A DNA stretch of 64,000 nucleotides from Escherichia phage vB_EcoM_FB. A model generated the notes under the pieces. That model had not been told where the DNA came from. It saw only the letters and a list, made by a program, of their open reading frames with translations, and ran no database searches. The stretch lies in sequence record MT682711.1. The stretch is one strand, 5' to 3'. Position numbers and translations under genes: made by a program. This document shows positions 50 to 58,350 of this stretch, one piece after another (the first letter of the stretch is position 1; each line of letters opens with the position of its first letter).

Positions 50-2261
50 TTAAGCCGCTTCCACGGCTTTCATGAATTTAACAATTTGAGCTACAGAAGC
101 CTCGGTAATGGATGTTCCACGACGATACATGTAGTCCGAAACTAAATGGTAATCAGATTCAAACTGTACAGTCATTTTATCATTGTTGCTTGAAGCATTA
201 TCAGTCAACTTAAAAAAAGTATTGTTACAAATTTTCTTGATAACGGAAAGCTTATCATCAGTGATATAACCATGGAAATTCATATAACGGAATATATCAT
301 AGAAATTACTCAGACGAGTATATGCTTCAGTTACCGGCTTATCACTGAAATACTTGGTCATGAAATTAAGCTGAGGGAACTTAGCAATGATTTCAAGGTA
401 ATACCGAGCTCGAGTATTGCTACCAAGGTAGTCATCAACATCTACCGCGTCTAAGGCTTCAGCATAAGCTTCTAATGTAGCTTCCATCAAGCATTCGCAT
501 TGGCCTAACTTTTTAATCTTTTTGGCAATCTGAGGGCGAATGATATGGAATTCGGTAGCACCAATCAAATTAGCCATACGACACATGGTAGTGGTATTGA
601 TGTCAAAGATACCATAAGCTTCATCCATTCCCATAATATCAGAACGACTGCCAAACAGAACATAACCTGTAATTTCTTCTGCTTCGGCAGCAGTCAAATA
701 CATGGTCTCTTGTTGCCAGCGCCCGTCTTTAATGAACCAACGATAAGCACTCGGTGTTTTAGGACGCGGTTCTGATGAACGGACAGTAACCGGAATCCAT
801 GGCTTAACAATTTTATTCAGTTCAGAGACTTTATAAAAATGAATTGTGTCACCTTTAAAAAGTTCTTTAACCTTTTCAAGTTGTTGCATTTGCAACATTG
901 AATTTGGGTCGACAAAAATAAGGTCAGTTCCGTATTTAGGAATATTGTTCTCTTTAACAATTTTCTTAGCCGAAGCACTGTTGTCCATTGCCAGAGCCCA
1001 AAGACCTCGAACTAATGGCACACGACCTTTTTCATCATCATAAACAACATGGATTTCTTTCTTATTAATGCCTAATAAATTACTAAGTCCTGCTACCGAA
1101 GAAGTATTACCACTTGACTTAATTCGTTTCAAACGTGGGTCTGAAACGACTTCGTAAACCACACCTAAATTAATAAGGTCGTTTTGAAGTGTATAACACT
1201 GGTATAATTTCTCATATGTCAATTTTTCTGTAGTAAACAGGCTAGTTCCACCTTTTTTGGTAAGATAGTCACGAGCACTGTAACCAAGGTTAGAAAGGTC
1301 ACGATAAACATGGCGTGGATTATCAGATTCAACCCATTCCTATGTATCGTTTTTAAAGACCACTGCATCCAGTGCTTCGATACGGGTTGCAATATTTTCC
1401 ATCGTACGTTTATCAAGAGACAACACTTCACGAGAAGGAGCAATATCCAGTGAACCCATAGGGAACTTAATATAAACTACATCATGGCGAGTACGCATCC
1501 ACGTGCCTTTATTATAGGCGGAATCCAATGGATAAACAATACCACCATAAACTGCATAAAGTCCTGAACGTTCGAAGCTGCCATAATTTGTAGTGGTTAC
1601 AGGATGGTAATCGTCAAATTCAGGGAAATAATCAACTTCAACACCGTCTACATCACCAAGACCAATGAAAGGCCGCATGATATAACGAACTTCAGTTTCA
1701 AACTTACGGAAATCTTCTTCATCAACAGGAACCGTGATTTCGATACCTGTTTTATCACCTGGTTTCATAGGTTCTACGAAAGTAGGTTTAATCTGTGGTC
1801 CATCACCATCCATATATGCTACATAACCGCGAACTTCACCGTTATGCCATGAGGTAATATTAAACGTTTCGGTATAACTGAACGGAGATTTTGAACCAAG
1901 GCCAAAGCCACCGATGAAATCGTTAGAAGCCGTTTTGGATGACGCGAAATAAGAGTTGTACAAACCTGTTTCGTTTTCATCACCACGAATTTGGAAATCA
2001 CTCATACCCGGACCGAAGTCACGACATACAAAGCGAGGGTCCAGTTTACCAGGGACCTGTACTTTCCAACGTTCTTTATTACCATTCAGAATATGAGCAT
2101 CAATCATGTTAGTAATCAGTTCACGTACTACAGCAACGTACTTTATTACTATAAAGGTCTGATGACAAAATTTTAAAGACCTTAGGCGATGCCTGGATAG
2201 TAAAGCCTGTGGACTTAGCGCCATTACCAATGATTTGTTCTTTTTCGGTTTCAATAATCAT
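50..2261 (-). pseudogene. rIIA: rIIA-like membrane-associated GHKL ATPase, disrupted: +1 frame change near codon ~40 and an in-frame TAG at 1340-1342
   Basis: ATG at 2261 with upstream GAGAAAAAT gives [14 protein letters not shown]..., then the frame shifts into ORF 1340..2254 carrying the GHKL N-box ([11 protein letters not shown]) and G1 box (RDFGPGMS); amber TAG at 1340-1342 separates it from the in-frame ORF 50..1222; first gene of the T4 map by position. Confidence 0.7.
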
Positions 2262-8765: not shown

Positions 8766-10097
8766 TCAAACGTAGTAGGCGTCAGTACGAGCACGAGTAA
8801 TACTAACATAAGCCAGCTGTGAAGCTAAATTCGCATCAGCCATATGCATGCATGGAGTATAGATGAAACTGTTTTGGACTGTAAGTCCTTGGGATTTATG
8901 AACAGTGCTCACAGGAAGAGCTCGAACCTTACTGAACATTCGCTTGGCTTTCCAGAAATCAGCCCACTTAGGTTTCTTACCACTACCACGCATGGCTTTG
9001 TACTCTGTAGCAACCTTAGCCAAGAAATAATGGAACTTCTCAACTGAAGCCTCATCGATAACCTTTAAATGCTCTACATAGTACTCGTCGTCTTCATCAA
9101 CAGATTCTACTTGCAGGTCCCAGTAATTAATCATTTGACGAGTGCCTACATCCTTAGCAGACAAAAACAACGAGGTATGGTTCACATCCAGAATACGAAC
9201 CATTTGTCCATTATTAAAAATGGTTTCAGAGAATTTCTTACCATCGTATTCAAGTTCCTTCATAAAAGGCTCTTGCATCACTAGGATTTCGCCCTTGATA
9301 TAAGGTGCATCGGTTTCATAAAGCTTTTTACGAATAATGCTATTCAGCTTTTCAACCGATTTATTGGTATAAGCAAACATCCTATTCTCAAACAGGGCAT
9401 CAGCATCTTTTACAATGGAAAAATAATTCATCATAAAATCTTTTAATGCTGTTTGGGATTTAAAACCATGGACACCATGTCCTTCGAATACACAATCTCT
9501 AAACCACCCACCATTACGGATTTCAGTAGCCACCTCAATGATAGGAGCATTACTACGCATCACTTCAGTCAAATGTAATTGTTTGATTTTTGGATGTGTA
9601 AAGAATGGAGACAACTGAGGGCTACCATCACTTCCAGGTTCCACTGGCTGTAGCTGAGCTCTGTCGCCAATCCCTAATACAGTACACCATGGTGGCACGG
9701 AGGATTCAATAATCTTAAACAGCTTACCGTCAATCATCGAGCCTTCGTCAACAACTAGAACATTACATTTGCTCAAGTCAGGAGCTTCGCGTTGTTCAAA
9801 GATGTCCTGGTCTTCGTACGTAGTAGGGTTAATTTTTAGAATTCTATGAATTGTTGATGCTTCTTGACCTGCGAGTTTCGACAATACCTTTTTGGCCGCA
9901 TGAGTAGGCGCAGTCAAAATAACTCCGAGTTCACCATTCTTGACTAGATGGTCAAGAATAAATTTGGTAAGGGTTGTTTTACCTGTACCAGCAGGACCGT
10001 TCAATGTAATCCATTCACCCTTACGTCGTTTAATAGCTTCAATGATTTCTTTAAAGGCCGTCCTCTGGCCGTTGTTCAAGTCTTCAAATGTAATCAT
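8766..10097 (-). CDS. dda: Dda DNA helicase (SF1)
   Basis: 443 aa; Walker A LNGPAGTGKTT; N-terminus and size match T4 Dda. Confidence 0.9.
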   Translation of the reverse strand: MITFEDLNNGQRTAFKEIIEAIKRRKGEWITLNGPAGTGKTTLTKFILDHLVKNGELGVILTAPTHAAKKVLSKLAGQEASTIHRILKINPTTYEDQDIFEQREAPDLSKCNVLVVDEGSMIDGKLFKIIESSVPPWCTVLGIGDRAQLQPVEPGSDGSPQLSPFFTHPKIKQLHLTEVMRSNAPIIEVATEIRNGGWFRDCVFEGHGVHGFKSQTALKDFMMNYFSIVKDADALFENRMFAYTNKSVEKLNSIIRKKLYETDAPYIKGEILVMQEPFMKELEYDGKKFSETIFNNGQMVRILDVNHTSLFLSAKDVGTRQMINYWDLQVESVDEDDEYYVEHLKVIDEASVEKFHYFLAKVATEYKAMRGSGKKPKWADFWKAKRMFSKVRALPVSTVHKSQGLTVQNSFIYTPCMHMADANLASQLAYVSITRARTDAYYV

Positions 10098-10393
10098 GCC
10101 AATTTTACTCGCTTAACATATAAAGTGTCTAAAACTAATTTAAGTTCTCGGGCTCGTTCTTCGGTAGGATATACTGTTTTAGTTTCCCACTTATCAAACC
10201 ACCATTTTCTAGGTGTGCACACCGTTTCAAGGCGTCCAAGCCGAAGATATCTTTTTGTTGACATTTCATAAACGGATAGAGCGGTATCGGCTCCAATCTT
10301 TGTCGAATACAAAGTCACTTCACCGGCCTCTTCTAATGGAATTTCGTACCCGTCTTTGTCCTTGTGAACTAATACGTATGCATAGTACATCAC
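10094..10393 (-). CDS. hypothetical protein (dda.1 position)
   Basis: 99 aa ORF overlapping dda start by 4 nt. Confidence 0.55.
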   Translation of the reverse strand: MMYYAYVLVHKDKDGYEIPLEEAGEVTLYSTKIGADTALSVYEMSTKRYLRLGRLETVCTPRKWWFDKWETKTVYPTEERARELKLVLDTLYVKRVKLA

Positions 10394-10394
10394 G

Positions 10395-11144
10395 TTAACC
10401 TCTAATCAGTGAAAAAATTGAAGCATTCAGCGGAAGACCTTTTTTCAACTTCATTTTGTCAATAAAAGAAAGGTGTTCTAAACGCTCCAGACCTTGAATA
10501 ATTTTATCATACATATCGTAACGCGTTTCTGCTTCAGACAATTTAAACTTGACACGCCAATCAGGCCCACCAATTAAAGATTTAAGACCCTTTTCCATAG
10601 TACCTATTGAAGCGTTAGAACCATGGATACGGGCCTTAACCGCGATGACAGAAGGGGTATTATCAGTGGCTCCTGATTTAATAAGGTCCTTAAGACGTTT
10701 TTCACGCTTTTTAAGACCTCTTTGGGTATCTTTAATATTTTTAACTATTTTACGAATTTTATAATAATTATCTGGGGTAACTTTAAAACTATTAGGCATT
10801 TTAGAACCACCTGAAATACGGGACGCTAAACGAGTCTGTGCACGTTTCAATTCATCTAAAGACAAATCAGCTCGCAACCCGTTGTACTTAACTTTAACCG
10901 GGATTACATTACCTTCGATATAACCTATATCGTTGTTAAAGCGTTCAAACGAAATCTTATCTTTATCTGAATTCTCATCAAAGCGCTCGCCTGAATATGC
11001 ACACACTTTTTGTTCAAGAAGTCTACGAACGTACTTACTAGACAGGTTAAAGTCCTTACCACGTTTTTTGGCAGAGGCTTTAGTGTGTTCGCGACGTTTG
11101 TAAACCTTTAACTCAAATTCATCGTTAGTTTTAATAGTAGGCAT
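10395..11144 (-). CDS. hypothetical basic protein at the T4 srd position
   Basis: 249 aa lysine/arginine-rich ORF between dda.1 and the ART pair; no secure motif. Confidence 0.5.
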   Translation of the reverse strand: MPTIKTNDEFELKVYKRREHTKASAKKRGKDFNLSSKYVRRLLEQKVCAYSGERFDENSDKDKISFERFNNDIGYIEGNVIPVKVKYNGLRADLSLDELKRAQTRLASRISGGSKMPNSFKVTPDNYYKIRKIVKNIKDTQRGLKKREKRLKDLIKSGATDNTPSVIAVKARIHGSNASIGTMEKGLKSLIGGPDWRVKFKLSEAETRYDMYDKIIQGLERLEHLSFIDKMKLKKGLPLNASIFSLIRG

Positions 11145-11174
11145 AATATTTTTCTCATCTTACGGACGATTAGC

Positions 11175-11213
11175 TGATAGGTCTATAGTATCATGTTGCT
11201 CGGTAAAGTAAAC
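11175..11213 (-). promoter_or_regulatory. early promoter (GTTTAC, TACTAT, AGACCTATCA leader)
   Basis: gtaaac at 11208-11213 and atagta at 11185-11190 on plus. Confidence 0.55.
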
Positions 11214-11282
11214 ACTTTTTTGCTTTAAATTTTCGACGGTATAATGAATCAAGGACTTTGCCTTTCAATTAAACCGGGTGGT

Positions 11283-11897
11283 TCAGTAAGAAAGAACGGA
11301 AAGATTCCAAATGGTGTAATTATTCCATTTAGGATTTCTCTCAATAGAGTCTACGCGCAGCGTAGTTCCCGCAGGGAACATCATCTCATCTTCATCATTG
11401 ATTAATTGTAAGTTTGCTACACGGGTAGATTCAGGAAATGCACCTGGGAACTCTTCAGGGGGCGCGGCACATAACATTTTAAAGATTTCTTCCTGATAAT
11501 TGTACACAAATGGTGCATCATTAATACAAAAGATATTAAATGTGCCGTAGAAGTTATAAGATGCGAAGTTACGAGCTACATTGAAATCTTTTGAGAAGCT
11601 CATTACTCGGTCGAATTCAATTACGGCACCTACACACATAGTAGATTCAAGATATGCCATAGTCTTCTTAGAAATCCCACGGTACAACTTGTCAGGCACT
11701 ACAGAAGTCAGGTTCTTACGAATAATTTTGTTCAGAGTTTCCTGGATAGTATCCGGTTTATTTTCCATACACTGCCAGAGGGTACTCTGTTCTAAATCAG
11801 AATACACCTCATCAATTTCTATCTGAGTATTCTCACGGAAATCATCGCATTTGGCATTGTTGATAAATTCTGCTAATTTATGGCTTGGATATAACAT
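11283..11897 (-). CDS. ADP-ribosyltransferase, ModA/ModB-like
   Basis: 204 aa; R-S-E type motifs (LYRG, SFS, E-rich); paralogue of the next gene; T4 modA/modB position. Confidence 0.65.
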   Translation of the reverse strand: MLYPSHKLAEFINNAKCDDFRENTQIEIDEVYSDLEQSTLWQCMENKPDTIQETLNKIIRKNLTSVVPDKLYRGISKKTMAYLESTMCVGAVIEFDRVMSFSKDFNVARNFASYNFYGTFNIFCINDAPFVYNYQEEIFKMLCAAPPEEFPGAFPESTRVANLQLINDEDEMMFPAGTTLRVDSIERNPKWNNYTIWNLSVLSY

Positions 11898-11910
11898 ATT
11901 ATTCTCCTCA

Positions 11911-11952
11911 GTTGATAGAAAGATAGTACCACAAGCTTCCTTGCCTGTAAAC
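11911..11952 (-). promoter_or_regulatory. early promoter (GTTTACA, TACTAT)
   Basis: gtaaac 11947-11952, atagta 11923-11928; leader CTTTCTATCAAC plus GAGGAGA SD. Confidence 0.5.
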
Positions 11953-12521
11953 TAAAAATCCAACATTTTTAAATGAATTGTTTTGTACTCGATTTCGTAC
12001 GGGTCCCTTTTGACGGTTTCGATTTCAACAATCTCAAATCTTGATAGGCTGGAGACCATGAACTCACATTCAGTTTCAACCATATCATAGAGGTCAATAC
12101 GGGTTTCATCTATTTCAAGCTCATCCACATTCCCTGCAAGAACAAGGTCGATAGCATGATTGTAGTAGTCGAAAATGAACGGTGCATTCCTGAGACTTAA
12201 AATGGTTTTGGTTCCATATTCCCATGCCCCTGCGAATTGACGAGCCTGAGAGTATTGTGTACTAAAAGAAGTAACTCGACCAGGAGACCATTGACAACCT
12301 ACTGAAAGGAGCTCTAATTGCTCAAGTTCTCTGGTGGTAATCCCACGATACAACTCTACTGGAACCGCTGAAGTAACATGCTTGCGAACCAGTTTGTCAA
12401 GGTCGTAATGGAAGTTAGGGTCTTTTTTAGCATCCAGACATTTTTCTAAAAGATTCTGTTCGTGTTTTGAGAATTTGGAATTGATTCGGTCTTGATAAAG
12501 ACATTTTTGTTCGATGTTCAT
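11952..12521 (-). CDS. ADP-ribosyltransferase, ModA/ModB-like
   Basis: 189 aa; LYRG...SFST...E motifs; tandem paralogue. Confidence 0.65.
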   Translation of the reverse strand: MNIEQKCLYQDRINSKFSKHEQNLLEKCLDAKKDPNFHYDLDKLVRKHVTSAVPVELYRGITTRELEQLELLSVGCQWSPGRVTSFSTQYSQARQFAGAWEYGTKTILSLRNAPFIFDYYNHAIDLVLAGNVDELEIDETRIDLYDMVETECEFMVSSLSRFEIVEIETVKRDPYEIEYKTIHLKMLDF

Positions 12522-12545
12522 ATGACCTCCAGTGATTTAGAGGTC

Positions 12546-12574
12546 ATTATAACATGAAGGGAGGAGGTGTAAAA
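12546..12574 (-). promoter_or_regulatory. early promoter with extended -10 (TGTTATAAT) abutting a hairpin that covers SD and start codon
   Basis: rc 12546-12551 TATAAT, GTTTTAC at 12568-12574; arms atgacctc (12522-12529) / gaggtcat (12540-12547). Confidence 0.5.
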
Positions 12575-12576
12575 CT

Positions 12577-12765
12577 TTATTTTACCCAAGGAGCCCAGGG
12601 TGGAGGGTCTAAGTAATAAGAAGCTAGGTCACTAAGAACATCTTTAGGCAACTTAAAACCATGCTTCTGTATAATCATATCAAGTTCGTTGACAAGGTCA
12701 ACAGGCGGCTCCTGAGTTGTTTCAGGCTCAGGGTCCGGAATGACAAACATATCAAATAAGTCCAT
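12577..12765 (-). CDS. hypothetical protein
   Basis: 62 aa acidic ORF. Confidence 0.45.
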   Translation of the reverse strand: MDLFDMFVIPDPEPETTQEPPVDLVNELDMIIQKHGFKLPKDVLSDLASYYLDPPPWAPWVK

Positions 12766-13256
12766 TAGTAACCACCGATAGGACCGTAGCCATACATACG
12801 AGCTCGCGCCTTAGCATCGCAAATAGCGTCTTCAGTCATGGTAAAGAGCAATCCAATATCAAAGTGTTTCCAAATCTGACGTTCGACTTCAGTAAGGTCT
12901 TCGGTAGCGGAAATCAAATATGTACGACCTTTAAGACGCTCATTTGCCATTTTATCTCTATCCTTATAGAAAATATCCATGGTTCCTTCGGCGTATGGGT
13001 CCGCCGGATAACGATAACCCTTGATATGTAATGCTTCAGCCAGGCTAAAAGGACAACCCTCAGCAACATCAACATTTTTATTATGATATGCCTTCATTAG
13101 AATATTTTCTGGTGGCTTAATATCTTTTAATCGTGTTTCTAGCTGGGTTATAGAATTCGTACCATTATCGACAAGGATAAGACACGCCGTAGCATCATAA
13201 GGACGCGTTTGTCCGGCAGAATCACGAACAAAGAATTCGAGTTCATAGACTTTCAT
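12765..13256 (-). CDS. hypothetical protein
   Basis: 163 aa ORF; AAGAGGAAAA SD. Confidence 0.6.
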
Positions 13257-13410
13257 TATGTTTTCCTCTTTTTAGTTTACCTACTAAAGGACCCTCCGGA
13301 ATTTTATTTTCTTGGATGTATTTCTCGTTTTCTTCCATCATTTTACTACCAATTTTAAGAAGCAAATCCAGTGCCTCTTTAGCTTGTTTTTCGGCCTCTT
13401 CAGTAGTCAT
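13243..13410 (-). CDS. hypothetical small protein
   Basis: 55 aa ORF translated by hand ([15 protein letters not shown]...); ATGA overlap with upstream stop. Confidence 0.4.
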
Positions 13411-13607
13411 GATTTATCCCCATAGATGTCACGCATAATTCTAAGAGCTTCGCGTTCTAATTTCTTTTCACGTTCCTCACGAACGCCTTTAAGAATCCAT
13501 TCTTCGGATTCACGTTTCATTTCTGCATTGGCTTGGTCTAACCATCCATCATCAAGATAATCGCCAGGACGGTCTAGCCAATCTTTAAGCCACGATAAAG
13601 GTTTCAT
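13407..13607 (-). CDS. hypothetical protein
   Basis: 66 aa ORF. Confidence 0.5.
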
Positions 13608-13930
13608 TAATCACACGAGCCGGACGATGAGTCGCAGCTTCCTGAGTCATAAGATGAATAAGACGAATCACCGGTCCATGAACTAACAGCAGCCGCAACC
13701 ATAATAGGAGTGGTATCAATATGGCTTGTGCGACGAGCTTCTAAATGTTCTTTAAACTTTTTAGAATTCAAAGGAAGGGCACCCAGGCCCACATTACCTG
13801 CTTTTTCAGGTTGCCGTATAACTTCTTCCATCATACCATCGCCCACATAAACATATTCCTTCAGACCTGAGATAGGAACCACCCCTTCACCAGGTTTGGT
13901 CTTGAAAAAATTCTTAAGCCAACGAATCAT
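13607..13930 (-). CDS. hypothetical protein
   Basis: 107 aa ORF with Ser/Cys-rich C-terminus. Confidence 0.5.
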   Translation of the reverse strand: MIRWLKNFFKTKPGEGVVPISGLKEYVYVGDGMMEEVIRQPEKAGNVGLGALPLNSKKFKEHLEARRTSHIDTTPIMVAAAVSSWTGDSSYSSYDSGSCDSSSGSCD

Positions 13931-14172
13931 AGGAAACCTCGTTTAAATTCAACTTTATCAATATCATCAGTCTCGTGACGGATTTCGGCATTAAATTCGA
14001 TAGAACCGTCTTCATGCATCATAAATGAATGGACAATAACTTCGGTATACCAAGGCGTATAGAAGTACTTTTTCAATACATGATTAGCGATAATTTCATC
14101 TAAAGTTTTATTTGGTTTAATCCAACGATTTAACATAGCATTCTCCTCTATAAGATAAGACCATCTTAACAT
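13927..14172 (-). CDS. hypothetical protein
   Basis: 81 aa ORF. Confidence 0.5.
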   Translation of the reverse strand: MLRWSYLIEENAMLNRWIKPNKTLDEIIANHVLKKYFYTPWYTEVIVHSFMMHEDGSIEFNAEIRHETDDIDKVEFKRGFL

Positions 14173-14198
14173 AACCTTCTTAGAAAGTAAACCCTTAA

Positions 14199-14226
14199 AA
14201 CCAAAAAAGGAACCCGAAGGTTCCTT
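14199..14226 (-). terminator. intrinsic terminator (UUCG hairpin plus U6)
   Basis: aaggaacc-cgaa-ggttcctt with rc TTTTTT tract at 14201-14208. Confidence 0.7.
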
Positions 14227-14230
14227 ATAA

Positions 14231-14464
14231 TTAAACTACTGGGGTAGGCGTAAACATCGCCGCGTTCTTAGTTCGCCAATCGGCTGCATCAGTTACTACA
14301 GTAGTGTATGCCGCCTTTTCAGAAGGAAATGTCTGATAGTGTGCATTCGCAATACGATGCTCGTTTGAATAGATTTCAAACGGGACAGATACTTCAACAC
14401 CTTTAACTTCTTTACCTTCACCAGCCGGATGCGTAAAGGTTTTAATATTAACGAAACCACCCAT
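14231..14464 (-). CDS. soc: small outer capsid protein Soc
   Basis: 77 aa; VNIKTF...HYQTFPSEKAAY matches T4 Soc as recalled; late promoter upstream. Confidence 0.85.
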   Translation of the reverse strand: MGGFVNIKTFTHPAGEGKEVKGVEVSVPFEIYSNEHRIANAHYQTFPSEKAAYTTVVTDAADWRTKNAAMFTPTPVV

Positions 14465-14495
14465 AATTAACTCCTTTGTTGTTTAATTACAGGTG

Positions 14496-14503
14496 TATTT
14501 ATA
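14496..14503 (-). promoter_or_regulatory. late promoter TATAAATA
   Basis: rc of tatttata at 14496-14503, about 30 nt upstream of soc ATG. Confidence 0.65.
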
Positions 14504-14505
14504 AC

Positions 14506-15027
14506 TTAATAACCTCGGTCCTGGCGAGCAAAGTTCTCGGCATTTTTCAGGTAATACAGTTTAAAGATTTCTTCAGCAGTCAGTCCAAGACCTTGGAACA
14601 TATTCAGAACAAAGTGCAGAATATCAATCATTTCGAATTTAATTTCGAGCTGGTCTTCAGGAGACAAATCGTTAATCAGGGTTTCACGACGTTCAGCATG
14701 TTGAGCTTTCCAAGGCTTCCATACAGCGCTCGCATCTTTTTCGCCATTGCTCATGCCACCAAGAGAAGTCAGAAGTTCGCGGAATTCATCATCAATATAA
14801 TCTTTCTGATTGCGCAACCAATCAACAACTTCACCTGCAGTAGCCAAGTCATCAGGATGACGGTTATATTCAGGTTTATCTTTAGCCAAACGGACTTGTA
14901 ATGATTTCTGCATATCAAGCATAACCTGCAGAGGGTCTTTATCTTCGTGAATCAGAGCATTAAAATAAGCTTCCTCAGCTTTATCAACACCAGCAATAAG
15001 TTGTGAGCATTCGTTAAAGTGTGCCAT
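14506..15027 (-). CDS. 56: dCTP pyrophosphatase (MazG-like)
   Basis: 173 aa; N-terminus MAHFNECSQLIAGVDKA resembles T4 gp56 as recalled; map position. Confidence 0.8.
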   Translation of the reverse strand: MAHFNECSQLIAGVDKAEEAYFNALIHEDKDPLQVMLDMQKSLQVRLAKDKPEYNRHPDDLATAGEVVDWLRNQKDYIDDEFRELLTSLGGMSNGEKDASAVWKPWKAQHAERRETLINDLSPEDQLEIKFEMIDILHFVLNMFQGLGLTAEEIFKLYYLKNAENFARQDRGY

Positions 15028-15118: not shown

Positions 15119-15319
15119 ATGGGCAGTATTTTTTACCAAATCTGGAAATTGGCCGAAAAGAAAGACAAGAAAATGATGTTAGGTTTTCTTGCGCTAGACG
15201 TATTCCTTTGGAATCTTCTAGTAGTCCCTGTAGCCGCTAGCCAAGGGATAATTTTACCAGCGGTTACAATGGAACACGTATTAAGCATAATTGGATTCTT
15301 TAGCGGAGTTCCTGCCTAA
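15119..15319 (+). CDS. hypothetical small hydrophobic protein (plus strand)
   Basis: 66 aa; strong AGGAGG SD 7 nt upstream of ATG; fills the gap between convergent 56 and 61. Confidence 0.4.
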   Translation: MGSIFYQIWKLAEKKDKKMMLGFLALDVFLWNLLVVPVAASQGIILPAVTMEHVLSIIGFFSGVPA

Positions 15320-57891: not shown

Positions 57892-58350
57892 TCACAAGTA
57901 AATAACTTTCGTGCTGGTTTTACCTTCTAAACGTTTAGAGTTAACAAATGCCATACGACATTTAAGGGAATATCCTTTATCAGGATGTTTACGGTCTACT
58001 GTCATACCTAGCCATAAGGTTTTATCGGTAATTTCGAGACGCAATGGACGATACACTTTACCAGGGACAATTTCGGATTCTACATCAGGTAGAGGTTCCT
58101 GGATTAAAAATTCATGAATTTCTTTAACATGGTTATGGAGTTGCTTGAATAAAGCAAAAACGTATTTTTCGTCGATTTCACGTTGGATAGCACGGTCCAA
58201 CAAGTGATTAGAGTACTTAATAAAGAAGGCTGGGACTCCGCTCTTGATGGCGGCTTTTTTGATGGACGTATTCAGTTCACGGAATTCGGTTTCGAACTGA
58301 CGACGTAATTTATTGCGGCGGATGAATACTTCTGAATTAATTTCTGACAT
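57892..58350 (-). CDS. regB: RegB site-specific endoribonuclease
   Basis: 152 aa; EVFIRRNKLRR...HLLDRAIQREIDE...LEITD resembles T4 RegB as recalled. Confidence 0.85.
   Translation of the reverse strand: MSEINSEVFIRRNKLRRQFETEFRELNTSIKKAAIKSGVPAFFIKYSNHLLDRAIQREIDEKYVFALFKQLHNHVKEIHEFLIQEPLPDVESEIVPGKVYRPLRLEITDKTLWLGMTVDRKHPDKGYSLKCRMAFVNSKRLEGKTSTKVIYL

Follow-up and report, generated by a model that had tools for sequence, protein, structure and literature searches.

In phage T4, the start regions of genes e, soc, 49 and I-TevI form hairpins that contain an internal promoter, and the principle of this arrangement is established (PMC3014915). Fold-back inhibition in IS10/Tn10 is described, in the citing passage of PMC13181058, as protecting from external promoters (Davis, Simons & Kleckner 1985), and in IS200 a stem-loop occludes the ribosome-binding site (PMC3196728). 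A further arrangement, designated PeSL, combines an early promoter with a stem-loop that may overlap the -10 element or precede the transcription start site (PMC2839356; PMC4122927).

The window analysed here is the whole 64,000-nucleotide stretch of Escherichia phage vB_EcoM_FB (MT682711.1), and the locus described is the start region of the modB gene on its minus strand. As in T4 genes e, soc, 49 and I-TevI, the Shine-Dalgarno sequence (SD) and/or AUG is buried in RNA from upstream promoters, the modB SD being placed by prediction in a 10-bp stem; in the T4 genes a promoter overlaps the helix's 5' strand, so that its own transcripts lack the strand and are translated, as is predicted for modB; and the hairpins are conserved in related phages, as that of modB is. 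The T4 genes differ in that a late gp55 promoter (TATAAATA) delays their translation, whereas the modB promoter is of the early sigma-70 type. Relative to the T4 late hairpins the temporal logic would be reversed, with modB translated from immediate-early initiation and not from later or longer RNAs, and, unlike in the late-promoter class, the arm at modB is formed by the -10 and discriminator themselves. The modB gene is absent from the list of examples (e, soc, 49 and I-TevI) in the review PMC3014915.

As in IS10 and IS200, RNA reading through from outside would fold over the ribosome-binding site (RBS) of a potentially harmful gene. In IS10 the element's own sigma-70 promoter, pIN, starts inside the fold and gives the sole translatable transcript, and the same is predicted for the modB promoter. 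Unlike modB, IS10 and IS200 folds belong to transposon ends, are unrelated in sequence and have a 5' arm that is not a -10 plus discriminator. The likeness to PeSL lies in the order of an early sigma-70-like promoter, an overlapping stem-loop, and then the SD and start codon, and in the insertion or deletion of open reading frames (ORFs) at the cassette border. PeSL stem-loops are compact terminators with arms apart from the SD, for which roles in termination and recombination have been proposed, whereas the 3' arm at modB runs from SD to AUG; an SD serving as a hairpin arm is not described in the PeSL papers (PMC2839356; PMC4122927). In the literature consulted no T4 start-site map or account of the modB hairpin was found, and an earlier mention in older T4 papers is possible. 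What is new here is the early-promoter class, the predicted reversal of timing and the use of the -10/discriminator as an arm; the underlying principle is already known.

Classification and gene content of the locus

Over the region 11200..13300 the window shares 99% identity with Salmonella phage vB_SalD_ABTNLS3 and 92-97% with the group of JS98, IME08, QL01 and Bp7, and on sequence similarity the window is assigned to the genus Dhakavirus within the T4-type Straboviridae. The minus-strand gene order is as in T4, namely soc - mrh.2 - mrh.1 - srh - modA.4 - modA.3 - modA.2 - modB - modA - srd. ModB is a host-takeover enzyme that ADP-ribosylates host translation proteins. The gene at 11952..12521 had been called ModA/B-like in a first-pass annotation of the letters, and the protein comparisons bear this out, as it is a Mod-type ADP-ribosyltransferase (PHROG 832, 'RNA polymerase ADP-ribosylase', 1.4e-37) with R59, S85, E151 and E153, the residues of the R-S-ExE catalytic motif, unchanged in an alignment with T4 ModA and ModB. 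Its identity is 32% to T4 ModB and 25% to T4 ModA, and the protein has no match in Pfam. The gene occupies the map position of T4 modB, of which it is the positional ortholog, and the records of JS98, JS10 and VR5 annotate the orthologous gene as ModB.

The modA.2 stop codon lies 19 nt upstream of the base of the hairpin described below, and translational coupling, in which a terminating modA.2 ribosome would open the hairpin, was set aside as probably too distant at this spacing. Immediately upstream of the -35 hexamer, JS98, CLB_P2 and VR7 carry a 77-aa ORF that the window, JS10 and VR5 lack, and the promoter-hairpin-modB unit is unbroken despite this insertion (JS98, CLB_P2). In this phage the neighbouring modA is served by a separate promoter whose -35 and -10 flank a stem-loop with a T-rich tail; the modA SD is not occluded. 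In T4, modA overlaps modB (ATGA).

Promoter and hairpin of the modB start region

A promoter scan placed the modB promoter, TTTACA (12573..12568) and TATAAT (12551..12546) separated by a 16-nt spacer, with a TG at the extended -10 position, at 12573..12546 of the minus strand; with 11/12 matches and the TG it is the top site in 10000..15000. Its GTTTAC-type/TATAAT class is early sigma-70-like, and the late-promoter motif of gp55 does not occur in 12519..12600. The exact position at which sigma-70 promoters start is variable within a few bases. The modB start was placed at the usual sigma-70 spacing, 7 nt after the -10; in the numbering used for T4-type promoters, -7 is a T and -11 an A (PMC1524935). 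A start at least 8 nt farther upstream would place the arm in the promoter's own RNA. The coordinates of the features are collected in Table 1.

Table 1. Features of the modB start region and its surroundings in the window
Feature	Position	Strand	Remarks
-35 hexamer TTTACA, T4-type GTTTAC class	12568..12573	(-)	GTTTAC/TTTTAC at the same place in 16/16 aligned orthologous leaders
Extended -10, TGT+TATAAT	12546..12554	(-)	Hexamer 12551..12546
Outer-helix 5' arm UUCAUGUU	12551..12558	(-)	Promoter spacer, TG and first -10 base
Inner-stem 5' arm AUGACCUCUA	12538..12547	(-)	Promoter positions -8 to about +2
Predicted transcription start	12536..12539	(-)	7 nt after the -10 is 12539; adjacent A residues 12538..12536
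Hairpin loop AAUCAC	12532..12537	(-)	From folding
Inner-stem 3' arm UGGAGGUCAU	12522..12531	(-)	SD GGAGG (12530..12526) inside; last base directly before AUG
modB start codon	12519..12521	(-)	Lies in the 3x3 internal loop (AUA/AUG) that separates inner and outer helix
Outer-helix 3' arm AACAU(C)GAA	12510..12518	(-)	modB codons 2-4; C12513 bulged
modB ortholog, 189 aa, ADP-ribosyltransferase	11952..12521	(-)	PHROG 832, catalytic residues, synteny
modA.2, 62 aa	12577..12765	(-)	PHROG 1647; named in relatives' annotation; stop codon 12579..12577
Nearest upstream early promoter (P14191), TTTACT-17-TAAGAT	14163..14191	(-)	Likely source of read-through across mrh.2..modA.2 into modB

The first-pass annotation had described a hairpin with two 8-nt arms in the string TGTTATAATGACCTCTAAATCACTGGAGGTCATATG, which was found letter for letter as minus strand 12554..12519. 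The upstream arm, ATGACCTC (12547..12540), spans -8..-1 relative to the predicted start and overlaps the -10 hexamer by two bases (A12547, T12546), and its partner, GAGGTCAT (12529..12522), with which it pairs perfectly, holds the SD and abuts the ATG at 12521, in agreement with that description. By folding, the inner stem comprises 10 pairs, of which 8 are Watson-Crick (12547..12540), followed by U12539·G12530 and A12538-U12531, and an outer helix of 8 bp is formed by UUCAUGUU with AACAU-GAA; the 10-pair inner stem and the outer helix go beyond the arms described earlier.

The minimum free energy (MFE) of the 59-nt hairpin is -19.3 kcal/mol, against -6.7 +/- 2.2 kcal/mol in shuffles (z = -5.75; 0/200 as stable). 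The 8-bp core is a perfect inverted repeat with a loop of 10, and perfect 8-bp hairpins number 22 in the window and 11.6 +/- 2.8 in shuffles. A bare 8-bp stem alone is not significant; it is placement, extension and conservation with covariation that lift the modB hairpin above chance. Rfam 15 gave no match at E <= 1 in 11000..15000 on both strands. A CCTCC tract at 12566..12560, within the promoter spacer, was rejected as the anti-SD strand for modB, as it varies within Dhakavirus (JS10 AACCCTTCCC, VR5 ATCCCTTCTC) and the MFE structure uses the discriminator arm.

Predicted accessibility in long and short transcripts

It had been claimed that RNA from the modB promoter would start inside the upstream arm and leave the SD open, and that read-through RNA would fold it shut. 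The position of the start stood in part: the predicted start falls at the 3' edge of the arm and not strictly inside it, and the promoter's own RNA would lack the 8-nt arm as proposed. A longer arm in VR7 and VIPECLUMC02 does place the predicted start inside it. The two predictions on accessibility agree with the folding: in thermodynamic predictions that leave out ribosomal protein S1, helicases and co-transcriptional effects, the own transcript is unstructured (MFE 0) and opening of the SD..AUG region costs 3.5-4.3 kcal/mol for starts at 12536..12541, and in long RNAs beginning 60-250 nt upstream the cost is 16.8-17.6 kcal/mol. For T4 modB the predicted opening cost is 13.8 kcal/mol in the long RNA vs 2.6 in the short one (ddG 11.2).

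The soc terminator lies at 14226..14207 with P14191 directly after it, and the terminator scan detected no credible intrinsic terminator between P14191 and modB, so that read-through into modB appears plausible. A MotA-dependent middle promoter was considered as a feed for later read-through and dismissed, none being present on the minus strand in 12600..14600. In T4, a promoter lies near 13185 and the modB ATG at 13130; the predicted T4 promoters at 15287, 13185 and 11850 probably correspond, by order and spacing, to the named early promoters Pe15.0, Pe12.8 and Pe11.5 (PMC6024815). Because the nearest promoter upstream of modB in the window is also early, a gain in timing is not obvious, and 'insulation from upstream transcription' may suit the arrangement better than 'timing'.

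Conservation of the pairing in related phages

Leaders of modB were taken from 17 other phages using blastn and tblastn; single-protein scans of viral contigs returned near-identical relatives only, and the diversity was obtained via tblastn against GenBank phages. The design is clear in seven genera, Dhakavirus, Tequatrovirus (T4, pSe_SNUABM_01 and ERS-1), Mosigvirus, Gaprivervirus, Karamvirus, Kanagawavirus and Marfavirus, and also in the unclassified Klebsiella phage Clarke_MM3, each clear case having a GTTTAC-type promoter 24-30 nt upstream of the ATG. Across 16 modB leaders the 5' arm begins in the -10 region and ends near -1, and the 3' arm covers SD to AUG; given the predicted start, the 5' arm in all 16 would be untranscribed promoter DNA.

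The arms are AUGAUAGCUUC / GGAGGCUAUCAU in T4, inside a 19-bp helix of -20.8 kcal/mol; GUUAGUAUCUCUU / AGGAGAUACUAAC in F48, where the entire TAGTAT -10 is covered and the local z is -7.4; AAUGGCCUUUCU / AGAGAGGUCAUU in VR7; and GAUGACCUUC / GGAGGUCAUC in PEi20. Between the Gaprivervirus phages VR7 and UPEC07 a C-G pair has become U-A, by which the SD is weakened and the pair kept; in the UPEC07 SD region, GAGAGACC, the GGAG is lost and pairing is retained by compensatory change. The outer helix is conserved in Dhakavirus, with a U-A to U·G change in VR5 through the synonymous GAA>GAG. Jiaodavirus LilPanda has a shifted, bulged version whose cognate duplex reaches merely -7.0 kcal/mol. In RB49 (Krischvirus), TTGACA-17-TATTAT is followed directly by GCCUCC..GGAGGC and U6, with the arm in the same position; this hairpin looks like a terminator, and the ancestral role could have been termination.

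RNAalifold, applied to a plain MAFFT alignment of the 16 leaders that was not fitted to structure, returned a consensus helix of 14 bp in which 91.7% of cells are paired, vs 35-49% with the partners slid by 1-3 columns. Double compensatory changes occur in six pairs (21 cells), and the covariation score was reached by 0/500 shuffles; position 4 of the -10 (G/A) covaries with the base preceding the AUG (C/U). Duplexes between promoter arm and start region average -17.0 kcal/mol for cognate vs -10.5 kcal/mol for non-cognate combinations (permutation p <= 1e-5). The helix cells include 39 G·U vs 5 A·C, an excess by which the pairing fits sense-strand RNA, and the fit is 91.7% for sense RNA, 76.1% for antisense RNA and 73.9% for DNA. 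The retention of pairing by compensatory change across genera supports selection on the pairing, and these comparisons make the modB hairpin well supported as a conserved RNA structure.

Sequestration of start regions at other early promoters

Among the 22 minus-strand early-promoter cassettes in the window, 7 have a predicted long-versus-short difference in opening cost of at least 5 kcal/mol, modB ranking third with 14.2 kcal/mol. When the 101 gene starts on the window's minus strand, which are heuristic calls, were compared, a ddG of at least 8 kcal/mol was found at 6/21 starts behind an early-type promoter vs 0/80 others (Fisher p = 4e-5). The next gene start after the six strongest is soc, the known T4 case, which serves as a positive control. 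A buried start without an internal promoter would silence its gene, so a link between sequestration and promoters is what transcript-specific gating predicts.

The hairpin was rejected as a general trait of T4-type early promoters, since 15/22 cassettes in the window, including the neighbouring modA, srd and P14191, and 11/12 in the first 50 kb of T4 have little or no sequestration. In those 50 kb of T4, modB is the sole early cassette with a large ddG, and it is at modB that sequestration is conserved between genera.

Proposed function of the modB hairpin

The modB hairpin is probably a transcript-specific translational gate in which the core of the promoter doubles as the anti-ribosome-binding-site arm. 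RNA arriving from upstream, whether initiated at P14191 or read past the soc terminator, would carry the promoter sequence, which would fold over the modB start region, from the SD through the start codon to codon 4, and block 30S binding. A polymerase initiating at the modB promoter would start just past the 5' arm, at about 12539..12536, and yield an RNA with an unstructured 17-18-nt leader and a free GGAGG that would be translated. ModB synthesis would then follow the firing of its own early promoter only, and upstream transcription would be unable to drive ModB or, in T4, ModA, which would share the modB gate through the modA/modB overlap and its translational coupling to modB. The purpose may be a short early pulse or the insulation of a toxic enzyme.

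Alternative explanations

A transcriptional role, in which a PeSL-type insulator or attenuator stops the upstream polymerase directly or via Rho and SD occlusion is secondary, is considered unlikely. It has precedent in the published PeSL cassettes (RB49/phi1, T4/PST and others), which were shown to terminate transcription (PMC2839356; PMC4122927), and it would account for the hairpin and U6 of the RB49 modB ortholog, for the stem-loop with a T-rich tail between -35 and -10 at the neighbouring modA promoter, and for the ORF insertion or deletion at the cassette border in JS98, CLB_P2 and VR7. The hairpins in the window (..GGAGGUCAUAUGAACAUCGAAC), in T4 and in the other Tevenvirinae leaders are however followed by no U-tract, and intrinsic termination at the modB hairpin was judged improbable on this ground and for want of a call by the terminator scan. 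The 3' arm is moreover always SD-AUG, and the compensatory changes track the SD-AUG spacer, for which a terminator would have no need. Polarity caused by Rho on an untranslated modB would follow from the block on translation and is compatible with gating.

A role in RNA processing or stability, either shielding the GGAG of long RNAs from RegB or providing the mrh..modA.2 message with a stabilising 3' end or a site of processing, appears quite improbable. RegB is encoded in the window at 57892..58350 (Pfam PF10715, 6e-69), and the GGAGG of the modB SD resembles the RegB-sensitive T4 sites, where GGAG in early SD regions is cleaved and secondary structure is known to inhibit cleavage and so to protect (PMC3014915). 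The modB helix is far larger than such a protective element would need to be, covering the AUG and codons 2-4 and reaching the -10, and UPEC07, which has no GGAG, still keeps the pairing. The link between promoters and sequestration across the genome is predicted by gating and not by a stability function.

An inverted repeat acting in DNA, as a protein-binding palindrome or a cruciform that modulates the promoter, would fit the overlap with the -10 and discriminator, a possible repressor position, and the perfect palindromic arm pair of the 8-bp core; it is nonetheless very improbable, as the 39 G·U cells would be mismatches in DNA (91.7% sense RNA vs 73.9% DNA-type pairs), and a protein site would not tolerate loops that vary from 6 to 11 nt or more and arms that are wholly different between genera. 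Chance complementarity between an AT-rich -10 with a pyrimidine-rich discriminator and a purine-rich SD has a negligible probability, for although about 12 perfect 8-bp hairpins are expected in 64 kb and the motifs are partly self-complementary (the reverse complement of TATGAT, ATCATA, resembles the ATCATG at the start codon), it is opposed by the advantage of cognate over non-cognate arms, the six pairs with double compensatory changes, the local z values in the window and F48, and the lack of such pairing at most other early promoters.

Implications

More tentatively, the modB hairpin may be the conserved centre of a broader, as yet undescribed rule for phages of the T4 type, by which early cassettes insulate themselves with an anti-RBS strand encoded in promoter DNA of their own that is not transcribed. 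Under this proposal the anti-RBS strand would be the -10 and discriminator in cassettes of the modB type, and the -35/-10 spacer in five or more further cassettes of this Dhakavirus, denV and regB among them; each protein concerned would then be made solely from RNA initiated at its own promoter.

ModA is reported to be highly toxic to E. coli (PMC2988021), and according to a 2023 paper (PMC10468400) a T4 ADP-ribosyltransferase can also link RNA chains to proteins of the host. If the proposed function is correct, a conserved gate would explain how the dose of ModB and ModA is confined to the first minutes of infection, and the modB hairpin would be an 'early-only' counterpart to the 'late-only' hairpins of T4 e, soc, 49 and I-TevI. 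The presence of the same structure in T4 itself makes it directly testable in the model phage. A practical consequence for annotation and engineering is that a T4-type early gene could be transcribed without being expressed, and that its translation would change if it were moved with additional upstream sequence or with its promoter core left behind. If the wider rule also holds, part of the PeSL stem-loops would be translational and not transcriptional insulators, and synthesis of ModB, and in T4 also of ModA, as enzymes that modify RNA polymerase and the ribosome would be tied to the firing and shut-off of early promoters, giving a self-limiting pulse.

Promoter and leader pairing in the window

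The design seen at modB, in which the promoter -10 and discriminator pair with the SD and AUG of the ADP-ribosyltransferase gene as a proposed gate on read-through RNA, has a second and commoner form in five minus-strand early cassettes. In these the leader and SD of the driven gene are complementary to the promoter spacer directly 3' of the -35 (arm pairs include ATCTCCTGTAGT/ACTACAGGAGAT and TTCTCCTCATG/CATGAGGAGAA), and a loop of ~30 nt holds the -10 and the start site. The predicted cost of opening the SD and AUG differs by 8-17 kcal/mol between read-through RNA and RNA begun at the promoter, and the arms covary between paralogous cassettes of the window. The first-pass annotation called the modB hairpin a variant of another design, which was probably this spacer-arm form. 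A near-identical -10 and leader module, (GATAC)TATAGACCTATCAAC, is common to eight early promoters, and resembles the promoter-early stem-loop (PeSL) cassettes of T4-type phages, as if one regulatory unit had been repeated.

Features of the window and of extracted modB loci of relatives (JS98, L001; CLB_P2, L004; VR7, L006; coordinates within extracts)
Feature	Position	Strand	Remarks
Early promoter	60902	minus	spacer-arm form, gene start 60847 (denV); module
Early promoter	58406	minus	spacer-arm form, gene start 58350 (regB); module
Early promoter	53762	minus	module
Early promoter	50444	minus	module
Early promoter	49046	minus	spacer-arm form, gene start 48992; module
Early promoter	41607	minus	spacer-arm form, gene start 41550
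Early promoter	18681	minus	module
Early promoter	17733	minus	module
Early promoter	11212	minus	module
Early promoter	7842	minus	spacer-arm form, gene start 7787
soc late-promoter motif	14503..14496	minus	TATAAATA, upstream of soc; within the stretch 14464..14503
Strong terminator	14207..14226	minus	downstream of soc
Promoter-like site	12674..12701	minus	TTGACC-16-TATGAT with TG, 10/12; inside modA.2
modA promoter	11951..11946 (TTTACA); TACTAT ending 11923	minus	
Stem-loop	11929..11950	minus	between -35 and -10 of modA promoter
77-aa ORF, JS98	L001 1724..1957		
77-aa ORF, CLB_P2	L004 1724..1957		
77-aa ORF, VR7	L006 2212..2445		

The modB leader in related phages

Some Dhakavirus and Gaprivervirus genomes carry a 77-aa ORF between the modB promoter, on its -35 side, and modA.2, the gene upstream of modB, and in them the promoter-hairpin-modB unit is unaltered; the ORF is missing at this junction in the window, JS10 and VR5. 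The UPEC07 leader has GAGAGACC (L029 173..238) where VR7 has GAGAGGTC (L006 2454..2519), a weaker SD core whose helix is kept by a matching discriminator change from GGCC to GGTC. The RB49 leader (L028 828..915) reads TTGACA-17-TATTAT, then GCCUCC-12 nt-GGAGGC-U6AUU-AUG, a terminator-like hairpin with the SD as its 3' arm and a 5' arm beginning immediately after the -10. The T4-type modB promoter and hairpin are also intact in the T4-like record ERS-1 (L031, about 1123..1420), where the modB frame ends after about 100 codons; the gene is a pseudogene there, or the sequence, which carries the label UNVERIFIED_ORG, is in error.

Transcription around modB and soc

The soc start region has the largest predicted long-versus-short opening difference among genes lacking an early promoter (7.3 kcal/mol), which agrees with the hairpin already described for soc of T4. 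A scan of the whole window for the MotA-box middle-promoter pattern TGCTTNA-N10-14-TANNNT gave 20 matches where shuffled sequence gives 5.3 +/- 2.5; most are on the minus strand, and none falls in 12600..14600.

The stem-loop in the modA promoter (UUACAGGC..GCUUGUGG) is followed by a T-rich stretch, was called by the terminator scan and could be an end point of modB transcripts; it does not occlude the modA SD. The promoter-like site inside modA.2, if active, would yield modB RNA with a long leader that includes the hairpin.
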